A DNA stretch of 64,000 nt, taken from the NCBI GenBank assembly GCA_001767195.1, contig MEKU01000001.1, forward strand, positions 51,705 to 115,704, given 5' to 3'. The position numbers were made by a program, and so were the translations under genes. The notes under the pieces are model-generated. The model searched no databases. It had not been told where the DNA came from and was given only the letters and a program-made list of their open reading frames with translations. Positions within the stretch are counted from its first letter, which is position 1. Each line of letters opens with the position of its first letter. Positions 16,628 through 62,486 of the stretch are shown piece after piece. The DNA is from Acidobacteria bacterium RIFCSPLOWO2_02_FULL_67_21 (lineage in GTDB: Bacteria > Acidobacteriota > Vicinamibacteria > Vicinamibacterales > UBA2999).

Positions 16628-16635
<8 letters not shown>

Positions 16636-16696
16636 GCAGTATGCAGCACATGACACTGCCTATCGCTGCCTACTGCCAACTGCCTACTGCCTACTG
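16628..16696. repeat. 7-nt-periodic inverted array (word CTGCCTA / TAGGCAG)
   Basis: Left arm GGCAGTA GGCAGTA TGCAGCA. Right arm CTGCCTA TCGCTGC CTACTGC CAACTGC CTACTGC CTACTG. It contains the clpB stop (TAG 16633-16635) and ends 4 nt before the ftsH ATG. Confidence 0.85.
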
Positions 16697-22493: not shown

Positions 22494-22584
22494 CAATAAA
22501 TGCTCAATGCCCAATGCCTCATGTCCCAATCTATCCCAAACACGTTCTGCATTGGGCATTTTGCATGGAGCATTGGGCATTGTT
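22494..22584. repeat. 7-nt-periodic inverted array (word CCCAATG / CATTGGG)
   Basis: Left arm CTCAATG CCCAATG CCTCATG TCCCAAT. Right arm CATTGGG CATTTTG CATGGAG CATTGGG CATTGTT. It fills the ilvN-ilvC gap. Confidence 0.85.
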
Positions 22585-23087
22585 CAGACGTATTGCGCGG
22601 CGGAGAGCGCCGTGTCGCCCCGGCGCATCGCGACCTGGCCGGTCCGCACCATCTCGATGATGCCGAGCGGCTCGAGCCGGCTGATGACGGCATCGACGTG
22701 CGGTGGCTCGCCGGTGATCTCGAGCGTGATCGTCTGCTCGCCGGTGTCGACGATATGCGCGCGCGTCTCGTCGACCACGCGCAGGAGCGCGGCCCGGTCG
22801 TGCCCACCGACCGCCACCTTGATCAGGGCGAGGTCGCGCGCCACGGCCGGGACGCTGCCGAGATCCTCGACCTGTATGACGTTGACGAGCTTGTACAGGT
22901 ACGCCGTCACCCGCTCGGCGCTCGCCTGATCGCTGTCAATCACGATCGTCATGCGCGAGACGCCCGGCTCGGCCGTGCGTCCGACGGTCAGCGATTCGAT
23001 GTTGAAGTTGCGGCGGCGAAAGAGCGACGCCACGCGGTTGAGAACACCCGGCTTGTCTTCGACGAGCGCGACCAGTGTGTGATGCAT
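22584..23087 (-). CDS. ilvN: acetolactate synthase small (regulatory) subunit
   Basis: ATG at 23087 gives MHHTLVALVEDKPGVLNRVASLFRRRNFNIESLTVG, an ACT domain. The TTG at 23099 in the ORF track lies inside the upstream repeat. Confidence 0.93.
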   Translation of the reverse strand: MHHTLVALVEDKPGVLNRVASLFRRRNFNIESLTVGRTAEPGVSRMTIVIDSDQASAERVTAYLYKLVNVIQVEDLGSVPAVARDLALIKVAVGGHDRAALLRVVDETRAHIVDTGEQTITLEITGEPPHVDAVISRLEPLGIIEMVRTGQVAMRRGDTALSAAQYV

Positions 23088-23089
23088 GT

Positions 23090-23172
23090 CAAATCCCAAC
23101 TCCCAAGTCCCAAGGTCCCAACGCCCCCAAACCCGCCTCTCCCTTTGGGATTTGGGACTTGGTCATTGGGCT
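23090..23172. repeat. 7-nt-periodic inverted array (word TCCCAA / TTGGGA)
   Basis: Left arm ATCCCAA CTCCCAA GTCCCAA GGTCCCAA. Right arm TTGGGAT TTGGGAC TTGGTCA TTGGGCT. It fills the ilvB-ilvN gap. Confidence 0.85.
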
Positions 23173-23177
23173 TTGTC

Positions 23178-24899
23178 TTAGATCGGATCGGCCCCCGTCT
23201 CCGCGAGCACCGACGGCTCCGGCCGGCGGATCATCGCGTGGAGGTCCGCGCCGGCGGGCACCATCGGATACACACTGTCTTCCTGCTCGACGCGGAAATC
23301 GATGATGACGGTGCCGTCGGCGGCCCGGGCGCGCTCGACGATGTCGCTGACGTGCGCGCGCGTCTCGACACGGTAGCCCTCAAGGCCGTGGGCTTCGGCC
23401 AGCTTGACGAAATCAGGGCTCCGCAGGGGCGTCGCCGCGTACCGGCGCTCGTAGAAGAACTCCTGCCACTGACGCACCATCCCCAGATAACCGTTGTTGA
23501 TGATGGCGACGTTGACCTTGACGCCTTCCTGCGCCGCGGTCGCCAGCTCCGCCTGCGTCATCTGGAAGCCGCCGTCTCCCACGACGGCCCAGACCTCCGC
23601 CTCGGGACGCGCCATCTTGGCGCCGATCGCCGCCGGCAGCGCAAATCCCATCGTGCCGAGACCGCCTGACGTGAGGAGCGATCGGGGCGTCTCGTGATGG
23701 TAGTACTGCGCCTCCCACATCTGATGCTGGCCGACGTCGGTGACGACCACGGCGTTGCCGCCGGTCAGCCGCCAGATGTCGTTGATCACGTGCGCGGCAT
23801 ACAGGTGCCCGTTGTCGGGGAGCTTCTGAATGTCCCTGACCGCAGCATCCCCCTTCATCGAGTGGATGTAGGCAATCCACTCCGCATGATCCGCCGCCTC
23901 GAGGCCCTCAAGCAGATCCTCCAGCGTCTCGCGCAGGTCGCCGACGATGGCGGCGTCCGCGCGGACGTTCTTGTTGATCTCCGACGGGTCGATGTCGACG
24001 TGGATCTTCCTGGCGTGCGGCGCATACGTCTTCGCATTGCCGGTGACGCGGTCATCGAAGCGCATCCCGAACGCCAGCAGCAGGTCGGCTTCCTGAATGG
24101 CGTGGTTGACCCACGCCTCGCCGTGCATTCCCATCATCCCGAGATTCAGCGGATGGCTGGCCGGCACGCCGCCGAGGCCGAGCAGCGTCATCGCGATCGG
24201 CGCATCGATCCGTTCGGCCAGCGCCAGCAGATCCCGGGTCGCGCCGCTCTGGATCACCCCCTGCCCGGCCAGAATCACGGGGCGCCGCGCCTGCCGAATC
24301 AGATCCGCCGCCGCGGCGATGTCCGCGCGCGTCACGGGACGGTTCGGACGATACCCGCGCAGTGTCACGCCCGCCGGGTCCCACGCCCACTCGGTCGAGG
24401 CCTGCTGCGCGTCCTTGGTGATATCGACCAGCACCGGGCCGGGCCGGCCCGACTTGGCCAGGTGAAAGGCCTCCTTGATCGCGGGCATGATGTCTTCGAC
24501 CCGCGTGACCAGATAGCTGTGCTTGGTGATCGGAAGCGTGATGCCGGTGATATCGGTTTCCTGAAACGCGTCGTATCCGATCAACTTGCCCGGCACCTGT
24601 CCGGTGATGCAGACGATCGGCGACGAGTCCATCATCGCGGTCGCGATGCCGGTGACCATGTTGGTCGCGCCAGGCCCCGACGTCGCCACGGCGACCCCCA
24701 CTCCACCACCGGCCCGGGCAAACCCGTCCGCCATGTGTGTCGCGCCCTGCTCGTGCCGCACGAGCACGTGACGGATCGGGTAGTCGAGCATCGCGTCATA
24801 GGCCGGCAGGATCGCGCCGCCCGGGTATCCGAAGACGGTATGCACCCCTTCGTGGACCAGGCATTCCCAGATAATCTGCGCACCGGTACGTTTCGGCAT
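23178..24899 (-). CDS. ilvB: acetolactate synthase large (catalytic) subunit
   Basis: ThDP enzyme. The internal ATG at 24899 gives MPKRTGAQIIWECLVHEGVHTVFGYPGGAILP..., a typical AHAS N-terminus. The ORF track start at 24935 is the alternative. Confidence 0.95.
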   Translation of the reverse strand: MPKRTGAQIIWECLVHEGVHTVFGYPGGAILPAYDAMLDYPIRHVLVRHEQGATHMADGFARAGGGVGVAVATSGPGATNMVTGIATAMMDSSPIVCITGQVPGKLIGYDAFQETDITGITLPITKHSYLVTRVEDIMPAIKEAFHLAKSGRPGPVLVDITKDAQQASTEWAWDPAGVTLRGYRPNRPVTRADIAAAADLIRQARRPVILAGQGVIQSGATRDLLALAERIDAPIAMTLLGLGGVPASHPLNLGMMGMHGEAWVNHAIQEADLLLAFGMRFDDRVTGNAKTYAPHARKIHVDIDPSEINKNVRADAAIVGDLRETLEDLLEGLEAADHAEWIAYIHSMKGDAAVRDIQKLPDNGHLYAAHVINDIWRLTGGNAVVVTDVGQHQMWEAQYYHHETPRSLLTSGGLGTMGFALPAAIGAKMARPEAEVWAVVGDGGFQMTQAELATAAQEGVKVNVAIINNGYLGMVRQWQEFFYERRYAATPLRSPDFVKLAEAHGLEGYRVETRAHVSDIVERARAADGTVIIDFRVEQEDSVYPMVPAGADLHAMIRRPEPSVLAETGADPI

Positions 24900-27252: not shown

Positions 27253-28895
27253 TGGCCAGCGACCAACTACAATGGCCCGCGGTGCGTCGCCCGGTCTTCT
27301 CCCTGCTGCTCCTGTCGTCGCTGACGTTCTTCCTTGGCCTGGGGCGCCAGGCGATCAGCGATTCGGATGAGGCGTTCTACGCGGAAGCGGCGCGCGAGAT
27401 GGTGGAGAGCGGCGACTGGCTCACGCCGCATTTCAACTACCAGGACCGCTGGCAGAAGCCGGTGCTCTACTACTGGCTGACGGCCGGCACGTATCTCACC
27501 GCGGGGACGTCCGAGTCGACGGCCAGATGGTGGTCGGCGCTCGGCGGCATGGCGCTCGTCCTCCTCACGTGGGCGGCGGCCCGGCGAATGGGACGGCCCG
27601 AGGCGGCGTGGCTGGCGGGCGCGATCGTCGCGACCTGTTACGGCTGCTTTGCCATGGCCCGGCTCGCGCTGCCGGATCTGCCGCTCGCGTTCCTGGTCAC
27701 CCTGACCATCTGGTCCGCATTCGAAGGGCGATGGCTCGTCGCAGGCGCCGCCGCCGGGCTCGGCCTTCTCATGAAGGGCCCGGTGGCCCTCGCGCTGCCC
27801 GCGCTCGTCCTTCTTCCGGTGTGGTGGCGTGAGCATCGGCTGCGCGCCCTTCCCCTCCGCGAGCTGGCGCTCGCCGGCCTCGTCTGCGCCCTCGTCGGCG
27901 TCCCGTGGTACGCCGCCATGACGCTCGAGCACGGGACGGCGTACCTTCAGAGCTTCTTCGTCGCCGACAATCTCGAGCGCTTCGCCACGGATCGTTTCAA
28001 CGACCCGCGCCCGATCTGGTTCTACCTGCCGATCGTGCTCGGCGGGATGTTGCCGTGGACGATGTACATGGCGATCCTGCCCTGGCGCTCGGTGCGCGGC
28101 GTGGCTCGCCGCGCGCGCGCGCTGACGCCATCGGAATGGCGGCTGCTGGCGTGGGCCGGAATCCCCCTGTTGTTCTTCACACTGTCGATCGGCAAGCAGC
28201 CTCGATACGTCCTGCCTGTGCTGCCGCCGCTCGCCGTGCTGGTTGCGGGCATGATTGCCGCGCGCGTTCACGGTCCGGCGCACGCGCGGATCTCGCTTCG
28301 GGCCGCCACATGGGCGACGGCTGCGCTCTATGCCGTGCTTGCGATTCTGCTCCTTCGGGCCGAGCCGCTGTTTGTCAGTGCGTCTCCCGGGCTCACCAGG
28401 GCGAGCATCGCCATCATCGCGGCCTCGGCCCTCGTCCTGGCGGCGCTGGGGCTGGCCGCAGCCTGGCGATGGCTTCCCGCGACGCTGGCGGCCTGTTCGG
28501 CCGCGCTCCTCCTCTCCCTGCAGTTCGGGGCGCTCGCGGGCGTCCGCCCCGAACCGGTGGAACAGATGGCCGCGGCCGTTCACCGCCATCGCCACTCCGG
28601 CGAATCGGTCGGGGCGTACCAGGTGTTCGTGCGGAATCTGATCTTCTACACGCGGCTTCCGCAGGCGAATCTCTACGACGAGGCGCGCGCGCTCGACTTC
28701 CTCCGCTCGCCGCAGCGGGTGCTGCTCGTCGTGCGGGCCGCGGATGTGCCCAGGCTCGAGGCGATCTCGGGCGTCGCGACGACGCGGCTGGCCGAGGTCA
28801 CCTATCTCGATCCGGCAAACGTCCGTCTGCGAACGCTGCTCGCGCCGATCCCGGATCAGGACCTGGACCGGGTGGTGCTCGTCACCAACAGATAA
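27252..28895 (+). CDS. glycosyltransferase family 39 (ArnT / PMT-like, polyprenyl-phosphate-sugar dependent)
   Basis: ATG at 27252 in the frame of ORF 27156..28895. N-terminal motif SDSDEAFYAEAAREMVESGDWLTPHFNYQDRWQKPVLYYW, at least 10 TM segments, and a soluble C-terminal domain. Confidence 0.85.
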   Translation: MASDQLQWPAVRRPVFSLLLLSSLTFFLGLGRQAISDSDEAFYAEAAREMVESGDWLTPHFNYQDRWQKPVLYYWLTAGTYLTAGTSESTARWWSALGGMALVLLTWAAARRMGRPEAAWLAGAIVATCYGCFAMARLALPDLPLAFLVTLTIWSAFEGRWLVAGAAAGLGLLMKGPVALALPALVLLPVWWREHRLRALPLRELALAGLVCALVGVPWYAAMTLEHGTAYLQSFFVADNLERFATDRFNDPRPIWFYLPIVLGGMLPWTMYMAILPWRSVRGVARRARALTPSEWRLLAWAGIPLLFFTLSIGKQPRYVLPVLPPLAVLVAGMIAARVHGPAHARISLRAATWATAALYAVLAILLLRAEPLFVSASPGLTRASIAIIAASALVLAALGLAAAWRWLPATLAACSAALLLSLQFGALAGVRPEPVEQMAAAVHRHRHSGESVGAYQVFVRNLIFYTRLPQANLYDEARALDFLRSPQRVLLVVRAADVPRLEAISGVATTRLAEVTYLDPANVRLRTLLAPIPDQDLDRVVLVTNR

Positions 28896-28897
28896 GA

Positions 28898-29028
28898 GGT
28901 GCGATCAAGACACCGAGTCGGTGCAATTCGCACCGGTTCTCGTCAGTGCAATCGCACCGATGTTCGTCGGTGCGATCGCACCGATGTTCGTCAGTGCGAT
29001 CGCACCGAATGCCATTCGTGGTCGCACC
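28898..29028. repeat. tandem array of ~24-nt hairpin units with GCGATCGC core
   Basis: Five to six head-to-tail units, e.g. GTGCGATCGCACCGATGTTCGTC at 28970 and a one-mismatch copy (GTGCAATCGCACC...) at 28946. Each carries the palindrome GGTGCGATCGCACC or a degenerate copy. There are no spacers. The array lies between convergent stops (TAA 28895, TAG 29030). Confidence 0.85.
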
Positions 29029-31617: not shown

Positions 31618-31660
31618 CTGCCTACTGCCTGCTGCCTACTGCCTGCTGCCTGCTGCTGCC
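31618..31660. repeat. one-armed 7-nt-periodic array (word CTGCCTA/CTGCCTG)
   Basis: CTGCCTA CTGCCTG CTGCCTA CTGCCTG CTGCCTG CTGCTGCC. Same word as 16628-16696, but I see no inverted partner. It contains the coaD stop and its last codons. Confidence 0.8.
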
Positions 31661-32764: not shown

Positions 32765-32866
32765 CAACTCCCAATTCCCAAACTTCCAACTCCCAACCGC
32801 GAGCTCGCGACCTTCAACTCCAACCCACGGCCTTGGGGGTTGGCGTCTTGGGAATTGGAAGTTGAT
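32765..32866. repeat. 7-nt-periodic inverted array (word CAACTCC / GGAATTG) with central CGCGAGCTCGCG palindrome
   Basis: Left arm CAACTCC CAATTCC CAAACTTC CAACTCC CAACC. Centre CGCGAGCTCGCG (32798-32809). Right arm ...GGGGGTTG GCGTCTTG GGAATTG GAAGTTG. It fills the recG-rsmD gap. Confidence 0.85.
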
Positions 32867-32868
32867 TC

Positions 32869-34953
32869 CTACCCCACTTCGATCAGCCCGAACTGCGGCT
32901 CCCAGCGCTGCTGCACGAACTCGAGCAGCTCGCCCGTGAGCCCGCCGTCGGCGACCAGCCGGCGCGCCTCGCGATGCGCGTCTTCCATGACCTCGCGATC
33001 GCGGACGAGATCGCCCGTCCGCAGGCGCGGCAGCCCTGACTGCCGCGTGCCGAAAACGTCTCCGGGGCCGCGCAGCTCGAGGTCCTTCTCCGCGATGACA
33101 AAGCCGTCGCTCGTGGCCGCCAGCGCCTTCAGCCGCTCGCGGGCGTCATCGGTCCAGGGCGATTGATACAGCAGGACGCAGTGCGATTCCCACGGCCCGC
33201 GGCCAACCCGGCCGCGCAGCTGATGCAGCTGCGACAGCCCGAAGCGCTCGGCATGCTCGACCACCATGATGGAGGCGTTCGGGACGTCGACGCCGACCTC
33301 GACGACGGTGGTCGACACGAGGATGTGCACCTGGCCGCCGGCAAACGCGCTCATGACGCGCTCCTTGGCGTCCGGCTTCATCCGCCCGTGCAGCAGCGCG
33401 ACGCGGTATGCCGGGAACACCTCGGCCTGCAGATGGTCCGCCATTTCGGTCGCGGACTTGAGGTCGATCTTCTCCGAATCCTCCACGAGCGGGTAGATGA
33501 TGTAGGCCTGCCGGCCGCGATCGAGCTCATCGCGCAGCAGCTGATAGATCTCGTCGCGCCGGGACTCGGGCTTGACCCAGGTCCGGACCGGCGTCCGACC
33601 GGGCGGCAGGTCCGTAATCTTCGAGACGTCGAGCTCGCTGTAGTCGGTGAGCGCCAGCGTGCGGGGGATCGGCGTCGCGGTCATCAGGAGCACGTCGGGG
33701 TGCAGCCCCTTCGCCCTCAGCGCCGCCCGCTGCTCCACCCCGAAGCGGTGCTGCTCGTCGATGACGACGAGTCCGAGCCGGTGAAAACGGACGTTCTCCT
33801 GGACCAGCGCATGCGTGCCGACCACGAAGTTCGTGGTGCCGCGCTCGACGTGCGCGTGGAGCGTGTGCTTCTCGAGACCGGGGGTGCTCCCGGTGAGCAG
33901 GTCGACGCGAAACCGCGACGCCGCGAGGAGGCCGGCGATCGTCCGGTAGTGCTGCGCCGCGAGGATCTCGGTCGGGGCCATGAAGGCGACCTGCAGCCCG
34001 TTCTCCATCGCCACGAGTGCCGCCAGCAGCGCCACAATCGTCTTGCCCGCACCCACGTCCCCCTGCAGCAGCCGGTTCATCGGCTGCGGCCGCTGCATGT
34101 CCTCCACGATCTCTTTGACCGCCTGCCGCTGCCCCGGCGTCAGTTTGAACGGAAGGATCCGTGCCGCCGCCGCGCGGATGCGGTCATCGACCTTCGGCAC
34201 GTGCGGCTTGATTTCCGTGAGGGCCGCGTGCCGCCGCCACGCGTGGCCGATCTGAAAGAGGAAGAACTCCTCGAAGATCAGGCGCCGCTGCGCGGGCGTG
34301 CGAAATGCGTTCAGCTCCTCGATCGATGCGTCGTTCGGCGGGAAGTGGGAGGCCTCGATCGCCGCCCGCCTCGGCTCGACGTGCAGCCGCGTGCGGAGGG
34401 CGTCCGGCAGAATCTCCGGGAGCGCGGCCGGCAGCGCGTCCAGGGCATGCCGGACCAGCCGGCGCTGCATGTTGGGCGTGACGGTGCCGGTCTTCTCGTA
34501 GAACGGCACGATCCGGCCCGTGTGGACGCCCAGCGCGTCCTCGACGACGAGCTCGTATTCGGGATTGAGGAAATGCAGCCCGCTCGAATCGAGCTTGACG
34601 TCGCCGAAGATCACCACCGCCGCGTGCGGCTGGAGGACGTCGGCCAGGAACGGCTGGTTCATCCAGGTGCACCGGATCGCGCCGCTCGTGTCGCTGACGA
34701 TCGCATTGAAGATCTTGAACCCGCGCCGCCGCGTGATCGCCAGCCGTGCGCTCTTGATCTCGCCGAGCACCGCCGCACGCATGTCGGGCCGCAGCGACGC
34801 GATCGGCTGCATGTGGCTGCGATCCTCGTAGCGGAAGGGAAACCGGTAGAGCAGGTCCTCGACGGTGACCAGCCCGGCGCGCTTGAGGTCGGCCGCCTTG
34901 CGCGGGCCGACGCCCTTCAGATACTGGAGAGGAGTGGAGAGATCAATGCCCAA
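32869..34953 (-). CDS. recG: ATP-dependent DNA helicase RecG
   Basis: 694 aa with an N-terminal LKGVGPRKAADLKRAGLVTVEDLLYRFPFRYEDRS wedge region, helicase motifs (GDVGAGKT, DEQH) and a TRG region. The first in-frame start is a TTG inside the upstream repeat. Confidence 0.95.
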   Translation of the reverse strand: MGIDLSTPLQYLKGVGPRKAADLKRAGLVTVEDLLYRFPFRYEDRSHMQPIASLRPDMRAAVLGEIKSARLAITRRRGFKIFNAIVSDTSGAIRCTWMNQPFLADVLQPHAAVVIFGDVKLDSSGLHFLNPEYELVVEDALGVHTGRIVPFYEKTGTVTPNMQRRLVRHALDALPAALPEILPDALRTRLHVEPRRAAIEASHFPPNDASIEELNAFRTPAQRRLIFEEFFLFQIGHAWRRHAALTEIKPHVPKVDDRIRAAAARILPFKLTPGQRQAVKEIVEDMQRPQPMNRLLQGDVGAGKTIVALLAALVAMENGLQVAFMAPTEILAAQHYRTIAGLLAASRFRVDLLTGSTPGLEKHTLHAHVERGTTNFVVGTHALVQENVRFHRLGLVVIDEQHRFGVEQRAALRAKGLHPDVLLMTATPIPRTLALTDYSELDVSKITDLPPGRTPVRTWVKPESRRDEIYQLLRDELDRGRQAYIIYPLVEDSEKIDLKSATEMADHLQAEVFPAYRVALLHGRMKPDAKERVMSAFAGGQVHILVSTTVVEVGVDVPNASIMVVEHAERFGLSQLHQLRGRVGRGPWESHCVLLYQSPWTDDARERLKALAATSDGFVIAEKDLELRGPGDVFGTRQSGLPRLRTGDLVRDREVMEDAHREARRLVADGGLTGELLEFVQQRWEPQFGLIEVG

Positions 34954-35048
34954 TGCTCAATGCCCAATGCATAACCGGCGTGCGCGAGCCGTTCACATTG
35001 TGCATTAGGCATTGAGCCTTCGGCATTGGGCATTGGGCATTGGGCATT
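34943..35048. repeat. 7-nt-periodic inverted array (word CCCAATG / CATTGGG)
   Basis: Left arm TCAATGC CCAATGC TCAATGC CCAATGC. Right arm CATTGTG CATTAGG CATTGAG CCTTCGG CATTGGG CATTGGG CATTGGG. Same word as 22494-22584. It covers the recG start codon. Confidence 0.85.
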
Positions 35049-36477: not shown

Positions 36478-36556
36478 CAAGTCGAAAGTACAAACTCGGG
36501 AGTAAGAGGTAAGTTGCGAACTTACTTGATACTTTCAACTTTGTACTTTCTACTTG
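36478..36556. repeat. AT-rich 7-nt-periodic inverted array (word xxxAGTA / TACxxxx)
   Basis: Left arm GAAAGTA CAAACTC GGGAGTA AGAGGTA AGTTGCG. Right arm AACTTAC TTGATAC TTTCAAC TTTGTAC TTTCTAC. Central hairpin GTAAGTT-GCG-AACTTAC. It lies between the lexA stop and the DUF3467 start. Confidence 0.8.
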
Positions 36557-36884: not shown

Positions 36885-37615
36885 AGACGGCCGCCGACAC
36901 GCGCCGCATCATCCGCTCCCTGGCCCGGCAGCACCCGAACGCCGACACGGAGCTGCACTCCCGCAACGCGTTCGAGCTCCTGGTGGCCACCATCCTGTCC
37001 GCCCAGTCGACCGACGAGCGCGTGAACATGGTGACGCCGGCGCTCTTCGCCCGCTATCCCGACGCTGCCGCGCTCGCGCGCGCCTCGACCGGCGAGCTCG
37101 AGCCGCTCATCCTCTCGACCGGATTTTTCAGACAGAAATCGAAGGCGCTGCTCGGCATGGCCCGGCAGCTGGTCGACCGCCACGGAGGGACGGTCCCCGC
37201 CGACATGGCGCTGCTGACCGAGCTTCCCGGTGTCGGGCGGAAGACGGCCAACGTGGTGCTCGGCCATGCGCTCGGCGTGCCCGGCCTCCCCGTGGACCGC
37301 CATGTGCTCCGCGTCTCCAACCGCATCGGCATCGCGAAGGGCGACGACCCCGAGCGGGTGGAACGGCAACTGTGCGCCGCGCTGCCCGCATCGATGTGGA
37401 CGCGCGCCTCGGACGTCCAGATCCTCCACGGCCGGCGCATCTGCCGCCCGAAGCCTCTCTGCGATCGGTGCTCGGTGCGGACGGACTGTGAGTACTATCG
37501 CGAGGTGATCACAACGGGCCGACCTGAAGGTCGGCCCCTACGTTCCAAGAAGGGGACAGCGGGCCGACCTGAAGGTCGGCCTCTACGTTCGAAGAAGAGG
37601 ATTGCAGGGCGGTGA
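36860..37615 (+). CDS. nth: endonuclease III (DNA glycosylase/AP lyase) with repeat-encoded C-terminal extension
   Basis: ATG at 36860 in the frame of ORF 36554..37615. HhH-GPD motifs (LVATILSAQSTDERVN, LPGVGRKTANVVL, VDRHV) and a 4Fe-4S cluster C-X6-C-X2-C-X5-C (CRPKPLCDRCSVRTDC). The last ~30 aa, GRPEGRPLRSKK x2, come from REP units. Confidence 0.92.
   Translation: MAEGPGTLKTAADTRRIIRSLARQHPNADTELHSRNAFELLVATILSAQSTDERVNMVTPALFARYPDAAALARASTGELEPLILSTGFFRQKSKALLGMARQLVDRHGGTVPADMALLTELPGVGRKTANVVLGHALGVPGLPVDRHVLRVSNRIGIAKGDDPERVERQLCAALPASMWTRASDVQILHGRRICRPKPLCDRCSVRTDCEYYREVITTGRPEGRPLRSKKGTAGRPEGRPLRSKKRIAGR
37516..37601. repeat. REP-like element, two direct 45-bp units
   Basis: GGGCCGACC-TGAA-GGTCGGCC-CCTACGTTCCAAGAAGGGGA at 37516 and GGGCCGACC-TGAA-GGTCGGCC-TCTACGTTCGAAGAAGAGGA at 37561. 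Same family as 1243-1336. It lies inside the 3' end of the nth ORF. Confidence 0.85.
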
Positions 37616-47478: not shown

Positions 47479-48656
47479 AGCTCGCTTTCGTCGTCCAGCG
47501 GTACGGCGCCGGGATCGCCGGCGGATCCGAGGGACATTGCCGCGGGCTGGCCGAGCGCCTCTCCGCCCGCCACGACATCACGGTGCTGACGACCTGCGCC
47601 ACCGACTACGTGACCTGGGACAACGCGCTGCCGGCGGGGCACTCGGTCGAGCGCAGCGTTCCGGTGATCCGGTTTCCTGTTGCGCGTTCCCGCCGCATGA
47701 AGGTGTTTGCAGACCTCAGCGACGAAGTGTTCGACGGCGGCGCGTCCCGCGACCGCCAGCAGGAGTGGTTCCGCGAGAACGGGCCGGAGGCGCCGGCGCT
47801 GCTGGACTTCCTGCGCGATCATGGCCGCGAGTTCGATCTGGTGGTCTTCTGGACCTACCGCTACTACCAGTCGTACTTCGGTCTTCCGCTCGTGGCCGAC
47901 CGAGCCGTCCTCGTGCCGACCGCCGAAGAGGATGCCGCCATCAACCTCGACGTGCTGCCGGATTTTTTCGACAAGCCGGCGGGGTATCTCTTCCTGACAC
48001 CTGAAGAGGAGCAGCTCGTGTCGAGCCGCGCGTATCGTCCGCTGCGGCCGTCGGCCGTTGCCGGCATCGGGCTCGAGCCGGCACCAATCGGCCGGACGCC
48101 GCGGGCGCCGCTCGAGTCACTGGGCATCCCGCACAAGTACCTGCTCTATCTGGGCCGCGTCGACAAGAACAAGGGGTGCGACGCGCTGCTGGAGAGCTTC
48201 CAGGAGTACGCCGCCAGCCGCCCGGACGTGACGCTCGTGCTGGCCGGTCCGGCCAAGATACAGATTCCCGCCCATCGTCAGATTCGCGCGCTCGGCTACG
48301 TGTCCAACGAGGTCCGGGAGGCGCTGCTTGCGCACGCCCGCGCGCTCGTCGTGCCGTCGTGGTACGAGAGCCTCAGCATCGTGCTGCTCGAAGCATGGAA
48401 TTTCGCGGTGCCGGCGCTCGTCAACGGACGCTGCAAGGTGCTGGCGGGACAGGTGTCGCGCGCGAACGGCGGCCTCTACTACATGTTTCCGGCCGAGTTC
48501 GACGAGGCCGCCGACTATCTGCTCAACAAGGAGACCGAGCGGGATGCGCTCGGACGTCAAGGGCTCGCCTACATCGACAGGGAGTACCGGTGGCCGACCG
48601 TGCTGGCCCGGGTGGAGCGACTGTTGGAGGAGGTACGGAGGACACGCCATCGATGA
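47475..48656 (+). CDS. glycosyltransferase family 4 (GT-B, GT1/GT4 type)
   Basis: GTG at 47475 overlaps the upstream stop (GTGA). N-terminus KLAFVVQRYGAGIAGGSEGHCRGLAERL, C-terminal E-x7-E region (PSWYESLSIVLLEAWNFAVPALV). Confidence 0.87.
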   Translation: MKLAFVVQRYGAGIAGGSEGHCRGLAERLSARHDITVLTTCATDYVTWDNALPAGHSVERSVPVIRFPVARSRRMKVFADLSDEVFDGGASRDRQQEWFRENGPEAPALLDFLRDHGREFDLVVFWTYRYYQSYFGLPLVADRAVLVPTAEEDAAINLDVLPDFFDKPAGYLFLTPEEEQLVSSRAYRPLRPSAVAGIGLEPAPIGRTPRAPLESLGIPHKYLLYLGRVDKNKGCDALLESFQEYAASRPDVTLVLAGPAKIQIPAHRQIRALGYVSNEVREALLAHARALVVPSWYESLSIVLLEAWNFAVPALVNGRCKVLAGQVSRANGGLYYMFPAEFDEAADYLLNKETERDALGRQGLAYIDREYRWPTVLARVERLLEEVRRTRHR

Positions 48657-48730
48657 TCGATGATCGATGATCTGACAATCTGATCGAATCATTGGTTCGA
48701 TCCGATGCACAAATCATCGATCATCGATGG
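48647..48730. repeat. 7-nt-periodic inverted array (word ATCGATG)
   Basis: CC ATCGATG ATCGATG ATCGATG ATC ... AATCATC GATCATC GATGG. It contains the stop codons of both convergent genes (TGA 48654-48656 on the plus strand and TGA at 48714-48716 on the minus strand). Confidence 0.85.
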
Positions 48731-60465: not shown

Positions 60466-61335
60466 TTAATCGCGCCCTTTCATCAGCTCCGCCCGCCACT
60501 GCGCTGCATGATCGAAGACCGAGTCGATGATCTCGGCGCGCTGGAGATCGTTGCGGACGTCCGACAGCCGCTCGATCAGCAGGTCGAGCGCATGCGCGAT
60601 CTCGTCCGCGTTGGTCAGGCAGATATCCCGCCAGACGTCAGCCGGGCTCGAGGCAAGCCGCGTCGTGTCGATCAGGCCCTGCCCTGCCATCCGCAGGCCA
60701 GGGCCGCCCACGGTCGTGCCCACGATCTCCATCAGCGCGGTGACCGCCAGTTGCGGCAGGTGGCTGATGACGGCCATCAGCCGATCGTGCTCCGCCGCCG
60801 GCATGGTCGTCGGGTGCGCGCCGAGCCCGGTCGCAAACGCCGACAGCCGCTCGACAGCCGGCGCCGACGCGGCCGCCGGACCGTCCGGCGTGAAAATCCA
60901 CGGCCGTCGTGCGAAGAGTCCGGCCGTTGCAAACTCGAACCCGCCGCGCGCCCCGCCGCTAAGCGGATGCCCCCCGACGAACGTCACACGGTCACGCAGC
61001 GCGCCCGCGGCCTCCACGATCGACCGCTTGGTGCCGCCCACGTCGGTAATGACGGCCGCCGGTGAGACCAGCGGGGCGGCCTGCCGCAGCAGCGCCACGT
61101 TCTGGCGCACCGGCGCCGCCAGCACGACGAGGTCGGCCCCGGCGATGGCCGCCAGGTCTGTTGCCCCCTCGTCGATGGCCCGCCGCGCCTGCGCTTCGCG
61201 CAGCACCGCCTCGCGGTCGACCGCGACGACATGCGTCGATGGCCACGCCCGGCGGGCCGCAAAGGCGATCGACCCGCCGATCAGGCCGAGGCCGACGACG
61301 GCGATGCGGGGGAAGACGGGAGAGTCGGAGGACAT
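60466..61335 (-). CDS. tyrA: prephenate dehydrogenase
   Basis: The internal ATG at 61335 gives MSSDSPVFPRIAVVGLGLIGGSIAFAARR (NAD Rossmann GxGxxG). The ORF track start at 61368 lies inside the heptamer array. Confidence 0.9.
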   Translation of the reverse strand: MSSDSPVFPRIAVVGLGLIGGSIAFAARRAWPSTHVVAVDREAVLREAQARRAIDEGATDLAAIAGADLVVLAAPVRQNVALLRQAAPLVSPAAVITDVGGTKRSIVEAAGALRDRVTFVGGHPLSGGARGGFEFATAGLFARRPWIFTPDGPAAASAPAVERLSAFATGLGAHPTTMPAAEHDRLMAVISHLPQLAVTALMEIVGTTVGGPGLRMAGQGLIDTTRLASSPADVWRDICLTNADEIAHALDLLIERLSDVRNDLQRAEIIDSVFDHAAQWRAELMKGRD

Positions 61336-61337
61336 GT

Positions 61338-61433
61338 CAAATCCCAAAACCCAAATCCCAAATCCCAAATAGGACGGGACGCGAGATTTGGGATTCGGTC
61401 ATTGGGGTTTGGGATTTGGGATTTGGGATCTGG
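61338..61433. repeat. 7-nt-periodic inverted array (word CAAATCC / GATTTGG)
   Basis: Left arm CAAATCC CAAAACC CAAATCC CAAATCC CAAATAG. Right arm GATTTGG GATTCGG TCATTGG GGTTTGG GATTTGG GATTTGG GATCTGG. It fills the gap between DAHP synthase and tyrA. Confidence 0.9.
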
Positions 61434-61439
61434 AGTTTC

Positions 61440-62486
61440 CTACCTCGCCCACCCGCGCCTGGCGACCGGTTCGAGGCAGATGCTGCGGCCGATCGCCGGC
61501 GCAATGATGCGCAGTTCCGCCATCAGGCGGTCGAACTGTGCGGGAAACATCGACTGGGCGCCGTCGCTCAACGCGTGGTCCGGATCGTTGTGCACTTCGA
61601 TGATCAGGCCGTCCGCGCCCACGGCCACCGCCGCCCTGGCAAGCTGCGCCACCATGTCGCGCCGCCCGGCGCCGTGGCTCGGATCGGCAATGATCGGCAG
61701 GTGGCTCAGCTTCTTCACCACCGGGATCGCCGAGATGTCGAACGTGTTGCGCGTCGCGGTCTCGAACGTGCGGATGCCGCGCTCGCACAGGATCACGTCG
61801 TTGTTGCCGCCGTCCAGAATGTACTCCGCCGACAGCAGCCATTCTTCGATCGTCGCCGAGATGCCGCGCTTGAGCAGGACCGGCTTGCGGGCGTGGCCGA
61901 GCTCGCGCAGCAGCGTGTAGTTCTGCATGTTGCGCGCGCCGACCTGGAAGATGTCGCAGTACTTCGCCACGAGGTCGATCTGGCTGACGTCCATCACCTC
62001 GGAGACAAGCTTCAGGTTGTGCACGTCGGCGGCCCGCCGCAGCATCTGCAGGCCGCTCTCGCCGTGCCCCTGAAAGCTGTACGGCGAGCTCCGCGGCTTG
62101 AAGGCGCCGCCGCGCAGCACCTTGGCGCCGGCCCGCTTCACCGCGGCGGCCGTGGCCTCGCACTGCTCGTCGGTCTCCGCCGAGCACGGGCCCGCCATGA
62201 CGATCACCTCGTCCCCGCCTATCCGCACATCATCGATCGTGACGACGGTGGGTTCGGGCTTGTAGCTGCGGCTCGCCCGCTTGTAGGGCTCGGAAATGCG
62301 GAGCACCTCGTGCACGCCGTCGAGGATCTCGATCATTTCCTTCTCCACCTTGCCGGCCCCGACGACCCCGAGCACCGTCCGCGTGGCACCCGACGATCGG
62401 TGCACGTCCATACCCAGCTCGATGAGGCGCGCGATGACCGCATCGATCTGTCCCTCTGAGGCCCGCTCTTCCATGACAACGACCAT
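61440..62486 (-). CDS. 3-deoxy-7-phosphoheptulonate (DAHP) synthase, type I-beta with N-terminal regulatory (FL/ACT-like) domain
   Basis: The internal ATG at 62486 gives [21 protein letters not shown]..., followed by a KDO8P/DAHP-synthase TIM barrel ([33 protein letters not shown]). Confidence 0.92.

Follow-up and report, generated by a model that had tools for sequence, protein, structure and literature searches.

The gap between the DAHP synthase gene and tyrA in Acidobacteria bacterium RIFCSPLOWO2_02_FULL_67_21 (contig MEKU01000001.1, positions 51,705 to 115,704; this whole 64,000-nt stretch is called the window below) raises the question of how the space between two housekeeping genes came to be occupied by two inverted runs of a single 7-nt word, and what the resulting hairpin means for the genes on either side. 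An earlier note, made from the letters of the window alone, had taken this gap as the type example of a family of intergenic hairpin elements and had attributed the family either to selection on structure or to local generation by slippage and strand switching. The evidence assembled here favours a reading in which these are foldback simple-sequence elements that are born and homogenised by slippage and template switching, are tolerated only after stop codons, and are transcribed as mRNA hairpins; we put the probability of this reading at about 0.55.

The anatomy of the type element is revealing of its relation to the two genes. The window has a G+C content of 68%, and the operon on its minus strand reads trpF-trpB-trpA-chorismate mutase-DAHP synthase-tyrA-metallo-beta-lactamase-fold protein, an order found on three contigs. 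The DAHP synthase gene (61440..62486, minus strand; Pfam DAHP_snth_FXD and DAHP_synth_1), which is 75-96% identical to Vicinamibacterales (Acidobacteriota) genes, ends in a TAG stop codon at 61440-61442. Downstream, tyrA (60466..61335, minus strand; Pfam PDH_N and PDH_C) encodes a prephenate dehydrogenase of 289 amino acids, called in three contigs, and starts with an ATG at 61333-61335. Read in the mRNA sense, the type element spans from the first base past the TAG to two bases before the tyrA ATG, making up the entire 104-nt gap (TAG-GAAACTCCAGATCCCAAATCCCAAATCCCAAACCCCAATGACCGAATCCCAAATC...TATTTGGGATTTGGGATTTGGGTTTTGGGATTTGAC-ATG). More specifically, a 5' arm of about seven CCCAAAT-type units (61385..61439, minus strand) begins at the first base past the stop; a non-repetitive centre or loop, delimited from the sequence and its folds, follows at 61371..61384 (minus strand); and a 3' arm of GGGATTT GGGATTT GGGTTTT GGGATTT (61338..61370, minus strand) closes the hairpin, with four G3 tracts in the arrangement G3-N4-G3-N4-G3-N4-G3 and a final ...TTTGAC directly ahead of the ATG. 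Both arms were delimited from the sequence, from Tandem Repeats Finder (TRF) output and from inverted-repeat pairs.

On the forward strand the letters of the two runs are exactly as they had first been read, CAAATCC CAAAACC CAAATCC CAAATCC CAAATAG at 61338-61372 and GATTTGG GATTCGG TCATTGG GGTTTGG GATTTGG GATTTGG GATCTGG at 61385-61433, and TRF recovers both as period-7 arrays (CAAATCC x 4.7 and GATTTGG x 7.0). When the window was searched by autocorrelation at periods 4-12, period 7 alone gave long or strong stretches. The hairpin of at least 30 bp that the earlier note had predicted is equally apparent: the arms are 82-88% complementary over 31-40 nt, and the element folds at -57.7 kcal/mol on the plus strand and -50.3 kcal/mol on the minus strand (both z ~ -6), a stability reached by none of 200 shuffled sequences. 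Three independent metagenome contigs from other samples, all encoding an identical DAHP synthase, carry the type element with 100% identity; it is thus a real feature, without hypervariability at the consensus level, and this agreement with three other assemblies rules out an assembly artefact. Its 7-nt units stand head to tail in two inverted blocks, unlike the 23-50 nt direct repeats and unique spacers of CRISPR arrays. A promoter and terminator scan around the type element found nothing at it, neither a U-tract nor a terminator-like site, and an Rfam covariance-model scan of the whole window at gathering score gave no matches, in agreement with the first impression that it is neither a CRISPR nor a classical terminator.

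Whether such arrays are a property of intergenic DNA in general was addressed by a census of the window together with 80 related loci (L001-L080; related loci are cited below by such numbers), 1.486 Mb of Vicinamibacterales DNA in all. Genes were called with a codon-usage model trained on the pooled sequences, which classed 89% as coding, and arrays of at least 2.8 copies were counted. At period 7, 111 arrays were intergenic and 28 coding, a density about 30-fold higher in intergenic DNA. Period 8 showed a weaker intergenic tendency (30 vs 12), while other periods yielded few intergenic arrays and were mostly represented by the coding periods 3, 6, 9 and 12. The pattern was replicated on 253 kb of unrelated contigs around another gene (16 intergenic vs 6 coding), where no other period was enriched. 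The intergenic character that had been supposed from the window alone is thus borne out. Of the 111 intergenic heptamer arrays, 66 are accompanied by an inverted partner within 400 nt (at least 15 of 18 matches); 50 gaps contain a palindrome of 18 pairs or more, and median stem stability is -49 kcal/mol.

The placement of the arrays within gaps is just as uneven. They occur in 7% of co-directional gaps (21% of those of at least 40 nt), in 13% of convergent gaps and in 3% of divergent gaps. Per kb of gap this amounts to about 0.9 arrays in co-directional and convergent gaps versus 0.08 in divergent ones, a roughly ten-fold depletion, and no two-arm element was found in any divergent gap of the census set. 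The occurrence of elements both within operons and between convergent genes, already recognised in the window, agrees with the genes that flank them. The median co-directional gap measures 1 nt where arrays are lacking and 104 nt where they are present; the element usually is the gap. Close association with the upstream gene is evident in that 44 of 115 arrays begin no more than 5 nt from its stop codon. The stop codon also tends to lie in register with the array, matching at 1.28 of 3 positions versus 0.58 in controls, a figure that leaves undecided which of the two was derived from the other. Words that contain a stop (TAGGCAG, ATCGATG, CTAGAAT and GCTGATG) often provide the stop codon itself. 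The presence of stops in all three frames was considered as a common property of the words; it holds for these four and fails for CCCAANN, CAAGTCA and AAGGTCA, and was rejected.

As to the words themselves, 28 of the 111 intergenic heptamer arrays carry an in-register GGG. The G-rich family that these represent (129 units, 28 arrays) has the logo GGGANTT, with G.95, G.91, G.88, A.60, N, T.77 and T.70, and arms of 3-4 GGG units are the most common. The other 75% or so of arrays use words other than GGGANTN. Very long single or paired arrays of GCTTCCG, GAACCCA, CGTTCTG/CCCGGAA and GACCAGA, with 10-18 copies, were seen at L039 868-994, L084 114-207, L091 298-491 and L147 775-844.

Comparison of the DAHP-tyrA gap among relatives reveals rapid turnover. 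Across 76 relatives the gap ranges from 0 to 351 nt, many having only 0-6 nt; of 74 genomes, at least 32 have arrays there, built from 19 or more canonical words. At least eight of these words are unrelated to one another: CCCAANN, TAGGCAG, GGCTGAT, TGCTGAA, GGGATTA (single arm), the octamer GATTGGNA, TGCAAAT and GTGCTCG. Since only 1-2 of 50-77 genomes have arrays in the other conserved gaps of this operon, the DAHP-tyrA junction is a hot spot. Relatives keep the two-arm architecture while the word changes, just as the differing words of the window had suggested. Within subclades the word is shared, which indicates vertical inheritance, and the elements of a subclade differ by unit-multiple indels and uncompensated substitutions; L072 and L020, as one-arm deletion derivatives, have only one arm left. 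A single ancient insertion followed by neutral drift was rejected, since an arm resembles its partner within the element more closely than it resembles the orthologous arm of another genome. Arm-to-arm complementarity within an element averages 0.76 and same-arm identity between genomes 0.53, the latter no different from the cross-genome control; thus, the elements are either reborn repeatedly as near-perfect palindromes or have their arms re-homogenised.

Some short DAHP-tyrA gaps resemble footprints of lost elements, as in L029 (TAG-GCAGGGAGTTGACAG) and at the tyrA start of L019 (TGGGATTTGG). The largest element seen, L023 4054-4352, has arms of about 150 nt with about 14 copies of the 8-nt unit GACGGATT, and its operon gap is also repeatedly occupied, with arrays in 9 of 61 genomes that are mostly built from 8-nt words.

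An apparent birth can be followed in the window at the ATCGATG hairpin between the convergent glycosyltransferase and JAB genes (48649..48728, no strand assigned; fold z = -4.2). About 55 metagenomic relatives lack this element, and their two genes overlap or adjoin each other. In the window, both genes stop at TGA codons within the ATCGATG arms, and the glycosyltransferase ends ...VRRTRHR*, about 9 C-terminal residues shorter than in relatives, where it ends ...VRRVRTRSAPRAQTVRS*. Derivation of the word from the native gene end was considered and rejected, as the C-terminus of relatives is different and longer and bears only a weak resemblance to the word (CGATCAG vs CGATGAT). That difference implies that the gene end near 48657 is derived from the element and not the reverse. 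From these sequence comparisons, the ATCGATG element looks like a recent gain that remodelled the ends of both genes. As a separate observation, most relatives (L084-L153) have a tail-to-tail overlap of the glycosyltransferase and JAB genes.

Several previously known repeats invite comparison. Repetitive extragenic palindromic (REP) sequences, with the bacterial interspersed mosaic elements (BIMEs) that contain them, and hairpin-forming MITEs (miniature inverted-repeat transposable elements) such as Correia and ERIC are intergenic, co-transcribed and located at gene 3' ends, where they stabilise the upstream mRNA or are cut by RNase III or RNase E. They have a genome-wide consensus (for REP, an imperfect palindrome of 20-40 nt headed by a conserved GTAG-type motif) and no internal 7-nt periodicity, and are accompanied by a REP-associated tyrosine transposase (RAYT) in the case of REP or by target-site duplications in the case of MITEs. 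The elements described here are neither, as had been surmised: words and loops differ by locus, GTAG is found only in the TAGGCAG word, and there is no target-site duplication and no shared internal consensus. A RAYT (Y1 transposase) was looked for among the flanking genes alone, none of which is a transposase. Drosophila foldback (FB) transposons have inverted arms of short tandem repeats, a variable centre and occasional cargo; their arms are of kilobase scale and they transpose. The present elements share the tandem-repeat inverted arms, the variable centre and the occasional cargo, but they are bacterial and gave no evidence of transposition here. Cyanobacterial short tandemly repeated repetitive (STRR) heptamers, as in Calothrix, are further related tandem heptamers.

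A closer counterpart is found in Xanthomonas. Rehm et al. (2015) described (GGGANTN)n heptamers in X. campestris and X. axonopodis, in which unit positions 1-4 and 6 are conserved, and noted GGGGA(C/T)T heptamer repeats in Nostoc PCC 7120 (PMC4692102). The Xanthomonas repeats are 89-93% intergenic and lie on average 28 nt from the upstream and 160 nt from the downstream open reading frame (ORF), some overlapping the stop codon; most are between aligned ORFs, with 16% in convergent and 7-8% in divergent gaps (PMC4692102). Each genome holds 70-75 convergent pairs able to form stem-loops, housekeeping genes adjoin the repeats, repeat length varies by species with the single or paired type retained, and conservation between the two Xanthomonas species stands at 83% (PMC4692102). 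Such repeats form G-quadruplexes in vitro, and their function was ascribed to these structures (PMC4692102).

The likeness extends to the 7-nt unit, the GGGANT(N) consensus, the intergenic and stop-proximal placement, the rarity in divergent gaps, the frequent inverted pairs and the housekeeping neighbours. Because the type unit GGGATTT and the logo GGGANTT match (GGGANTN)n, with the same placement and inverted pairs, we take the type element as a new member of a kind already known, one that uses many more words in these genomes. Judged by these sequence features, then, it belongs to the class of intergenic heptameric repeats of Xanthomonas and cyanobacteria, a class described but poorly understood, and is not a new kind of element as the earlier note had implied. 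Differences are also clear. Only about one quarter of the arrays here are GGGANTN, and dozens of other words, many of them not G-rich and some with 8-nt units, build the same two-arm architecture. Here it is usually the C-rich arm that follows the stop, whereas in the text on Xanthomonas it is the G-rich strand, a point on which the accompanying figure legend is ambiguous (PMC4692102). Turnover is much faster than the 83% conservation between two Xanthomonas species would suggest, the phylum is Acidobacteriota, and there is the DAHP-tyrA hot spot.

Heptamers have also been surveyed more broadly. In the summary given in PMC4679880, Mrazek et al. (2007) reported long simple sequence repeats with 5-11 nt units, mostly heptanucleotides, and proposed an origin by slippage; according to the same summary, slippage related to a 7-nt polymerase footprint was proposed for the heptamers over-represented in intergenic DNA of free-living bacteria with large genomes. 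As summarised, the repeats of these surveys and the STRR are direct arrays, in contrast to the two inverted arms, the abutment on stop codons and the hot spot seen here. Direct TAACTGA heptamers of marine Beggiatoaceae are intergenic, lie a few nucleotides from a coding boundary and are suspected of a role in translation (MacGregor 2015, PMC4679880); they use one word, are direct with one inverted case in 170, and stand upstream of start codons (PMC4679880). The present arrays share with them the intergenic position at a coding boundary, but have many words, inverted arms and a position after stop codons. A literature search found no description of such elements for Vicinamibacterales.

Taken as foldback simple-sequence elements, the arrays would lengthen and shorten by replication slippage, unit-multiple indels being observed, and one arm would be made from the other, or corrected against it, by intrastrand or ectopic template switching. 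Arms templated from each other would give a near-perfect palindrome at the start, with one word in both arms. Words may sometimes be copied into neighbouring gaps, and decay would proceed by uncompensated point mutation and by loss of one arm. Survival would be limited to places where an element is harmless, namely immediately behind a stop codon, in the short spacers within compact operons and in convergent gaps, but not in promoter regions. The type element is probably transcribed within the trpF-trpB-trpA-chorismate mutase-DAHP synthase-tyrA operon, and if so must form a stem of about 40 bp in the mRNA. Such a stem would be expected to block 3' exonucleases, to be a target of RNase III, or both. 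The tyrA ribosome-binding region would be occluded in the base of the stem and might be opened by the ribosome that terminates at the adjacent stop codon. The observations on which this reading draws are the anatomy of the elements, their intergenic distribution at gene 3' ends, their birth, length change and decay, and the absence of tuning to the RNA strand.

Several findings do not sit easily with such a passive origin. The preference for 7 nt is not accounted for by this reading, and the GGGANTN word recurs in three phyla. The occupation of the DAHP-tyrA hot spot by at least eight unrelated words points to a greater specificity than one expects of random slippage, as does the excess of TAG stops beside arrays (p = 0.002), which are found in 20 of 39 gap types against a share of 27% among genes overall. 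The arms also show a bias of orientation: an A-rich 5' arm is seen in 31 of 41 elements (or, with one count per gap type, in 14 of 19, p = 0.06), and in the GGGANTT family the C-rich arm almost always follows the stop, with the G-rich arm ending GGGAnTTGAC before the next ATG. Every co-directional two-arm element of this family (6 gap types) has its C-rich arm after the stop, and G-first cases are L051, L037:13863 and L054/L062/L064. Finally, the 'loops' of AATCTAG foldbacks in L069 and L062 hold cargo. It should be added that the favoured reading and its rivals are not fully exclusive of one another.

The alternative that retains the most weight, while still unlikely, is that the hairpins are selected RNA elements that set operon stoichiometry through mRNA processing or stabilisation, as a barrier to 3' exonucleases or a site for RNase III, or that couple translation by keeping the downstream ribosome-binding site in a stem which would open only as a ribosome terminates at the neighbouring stop codon. 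Intergenic stem-loops are described as controlling operon stoichiometry in clostridia in the accounts of PMC4423207 and PMC8219983. Here the stems begin at the stop codon and many end at the next start codon, the last unit of the GGGANTT family (GGGAG or GGGAT, then TTGAC) occupies the Shine-Dalgarno position, the arms show a bias of orientation with respect to transcription, unrelated words have repeatedly come to occupy the DAHP-tyrA junction, and the stems are very stable. However, no advantage for the mRNA strand is apparent. Stem mismatches in the mRNA sense show no G-U excess (97 G-U vs 83 A-C, not significant), and sense and antisense folds are equally stable (20 vs 18 elements, Wilcoxon p = 0.87). 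Stems in close orthologues accumulate uncompensated mismatches, pairs being lost without compensation, and presence, length and word vary among near relatives, many of which have a gap of only 0-6 nt. With many elements, a Shine-Dalgarno sequence lies apart and unpaired on the downstream side, and many arrays have a single arm. The selection on structure that the earlier note had offered as one explanation thus finds no support in G-U excess, in strand-specific stability or in compensatory change. A G/C polarity rule for the arms was also considered and rejected (20 vs 21).

It is somewhat less probable that the elements are non-autonomous mobile foldbacks, whose arms serve as terminal inverted repeats for a transposase or HUH nuclease that inserts them after stops, sometimes with cargo. 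The distribution of words bears directly on this question. The vocabulary is restricted, in that 7.8% of all word pairs lie within one mismatch versus 1.7% for random words. When only non-orthologous gaps are compared, similar words occur in 5.9% of between-genome pairs and in 19% of pairs no more than 6 kb apart in one genome (p = 0.003). The same words are thus found again at non-orthologous sites in different genomes and are clustered among adjacent gaps, as mobility would have it, and the unit order CCCAATG-ACCAAGT-CCCAA is common to the ilvB-ilvN element of the window (23169) and the DAHP-tyrA elements of L007 and L018, the only shared order found. The arrays that flank a metallophosphoesterase gene of lower GC in L069 and L062, the nested inserts in loops of L001, L030 and L037, the excess of TAG stops at the flanks and the apparently recent gain of the 48657 element could be read in the same way. 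Against mobility, no target-site duplication was found at element borders or in comparisons of filled and empty sites, no transposase gene was seen beside an element or among those flanking genes that were scanned, the loops of same-word elements are unrelated, and there are dozens of words where a few consensus families would be expected. Unit-multiple indels and mixed-word arrays, moreover, fit evolution in place. Single-linkage clustering of the words was discarded, as it chained nearly all of them together in a single cluster.

A combination of slippage with copying among elements near each other fits the evidence both for dispersal and for evolution in place. In this respect the local generation by slippage and strand switching proposed in the earlier note stands in part: it is supported by the unit-multiple indels and by arms that share a word, but it is incomplete in view of the limited set of words and of their reappearance in neighbouring and in non-orthologous gaps.

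Observations on the contents of individual loops may be recorded here. In L069 (16612-17850), inverted AATCTAG/CTAGATT arrays enclose a metallophosphoesterase-family gene of 249 amino acids with a G+C content of about 59%, compared with 68% for the genome; in L062 (17272-18202 and 14421-15115), such arrays enclose a decayed metallophosphoesterase copy and also a 590-nt segment without an ORF. A hairpin with AAGGTCA/TGACCTT arms at L037 12899-13235 has a loop of about 12 copies of the 14-nt tandem repeat GTGTAGGTTCTCRG, and hairpins nested inside a loop are also present at L001 5879-6229 and L030 11054-11254.

A further alternative, which we regard as improbable, is that a dedicated activity, whether a foldback mobile system, a nuclease or a polymerase, installs word-specific heptamer palindromes at stop codons in place of passive slippage. 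Such an activity would be TAG-biased, prone to hot spots and gene-trapping, and would be common to Acidobacteriota, Xanthomonas and cyanobacteria.

More doubtful still is the proposal made for the Xanthomonas and Nostoc heptamers, that a G-quadruplex of the G-rich arm modulates transcription or translation beside the ORF. In the mRNA, the type example does have four G3 tracts separated by 4-nt loops close to the tyrA ATG on its upstream side, and the opposite strand repeats this arrangement; the family logo is GGGANTT, arms of 3-4 GGG units being the commonest, and such repeats form the structure in vitro (PMC4692102). However, in-register GGG is present in just 28 of the 111 intergenic heptamer arrays, and CTGCCTA, ATCGATG, AAGGTCA and GCTGATG give the same architecture without G tracts. 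The independence of the hairpin and stop-codon architecture from the word thus argues against this explanation, and the proximity of a C-rich arm means that a duplex of at least 30 bp should out-compete the quadruplex. Unusual factor-independent or bidirectional terminators lacking a U-tract are very improbable, for although these are stable, GC-containing hairpins at gene 3' ends and per gap most frequent between convergent genes (13%), there is no U-tract or terminator-like site at the type element, most elements lie in tight housekeeping operons (ilvB-ilvN-ilvC, trp/aro) where termination would be harmful, and stems of 30-50 bp or longer with large internal loops are unlike intrinsic terminators.

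In many large bacterial genomes, no long simple-sequence repeat is as abundant as the heptamers, and Vicinamibacterales show the phenomenon in an extreme, multi-word form. The independence of the architecture from any one word points to a general process of palindrome birth and decay at the 3' ends of genes, and makes the origin of the heptamers more tractable. Because these elements place stems of 30-50 bp in housekeeping operons (ilvBNC, trp/aro, clpB-ftsH, recG) and can rewrite gene termini, they need to be considered when genes are called, operons predicted and mRNA studied in uncultured soil bacteria. The effects of an element could be tested in a well-defined setting at the DAHP-tyrA hot spot.

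The remaining elements of the window repeat the architecture with other words, in keeping with the view of one family of intergenic two-arm heptamer hairpins whose word varies among loci. On the plus strand, a GGCAGTA/CTGCCTA hairpin in the clpB-ftsH gap (16628..16696; fold z = -4.0) has an array that begins within the last clpB codons and provides the clpB TAG, and an AT-rich GAAAGTA/TACTTTC hairpin separates lexA from a DUF3467 gene (36478..36556; z = -6.1). On the minus strand, the ilvN-ilvC gap holds a CCCAATG/CATTGGG hairpin (22499..22583; z = -4.4) and the ilvB-ilvN gap a CCCAANN/NNTTGGG hairpin (23081..23184; z = -3.4) that ends GGGATTTGAC-ATG, as the type example does. Also on the minus strand are a CAACTCC/GGAGTTG-type hairpin in the recG-rsmD gap (32765..32864; z = -7.5) and a CCCAATG/CATTGGG hairpin upstream of recG (34944..35048; z = -5.9). 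With the ATCGATG element, seven of the eight further loci that had been listed from the letters (16628, 22494, 23090, 32765, 34943, 36478 and 48647) are therefore hairpins, with z from -3.4 to -7.5; the eighth (31618..31656, minus strand) is a single TAGGCAG/CAGGCAG array without an inverted partner that overlaps the 3' end of coaD (z = -0.84).

Two other repeats of the window differ from the heptamer elements. At 37511-37601, a 45-nt unit is present twice, each copy with a GC-rich hairpin GGGCCGACCTGAAGGTCGGCCC, and similar GGCGGACC...GGTCCGCC hairpins occur in L089-L092, in L041 (about 4490) and in the DAHP-tyrA gap of L009; these look like a second, REP-like hairpin family in these genomes. 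At 28917-29008, in the gap between genes ending at 28895 and 29030, a 24-nt unit (GTCAGTGCAATCGCACCGATGTTC) is repeated 3.8 times with embedded GGTGCGATCGCACC palindromes, and its GTGCGAT core resembles the 8-nt word of L018 4454-4528.

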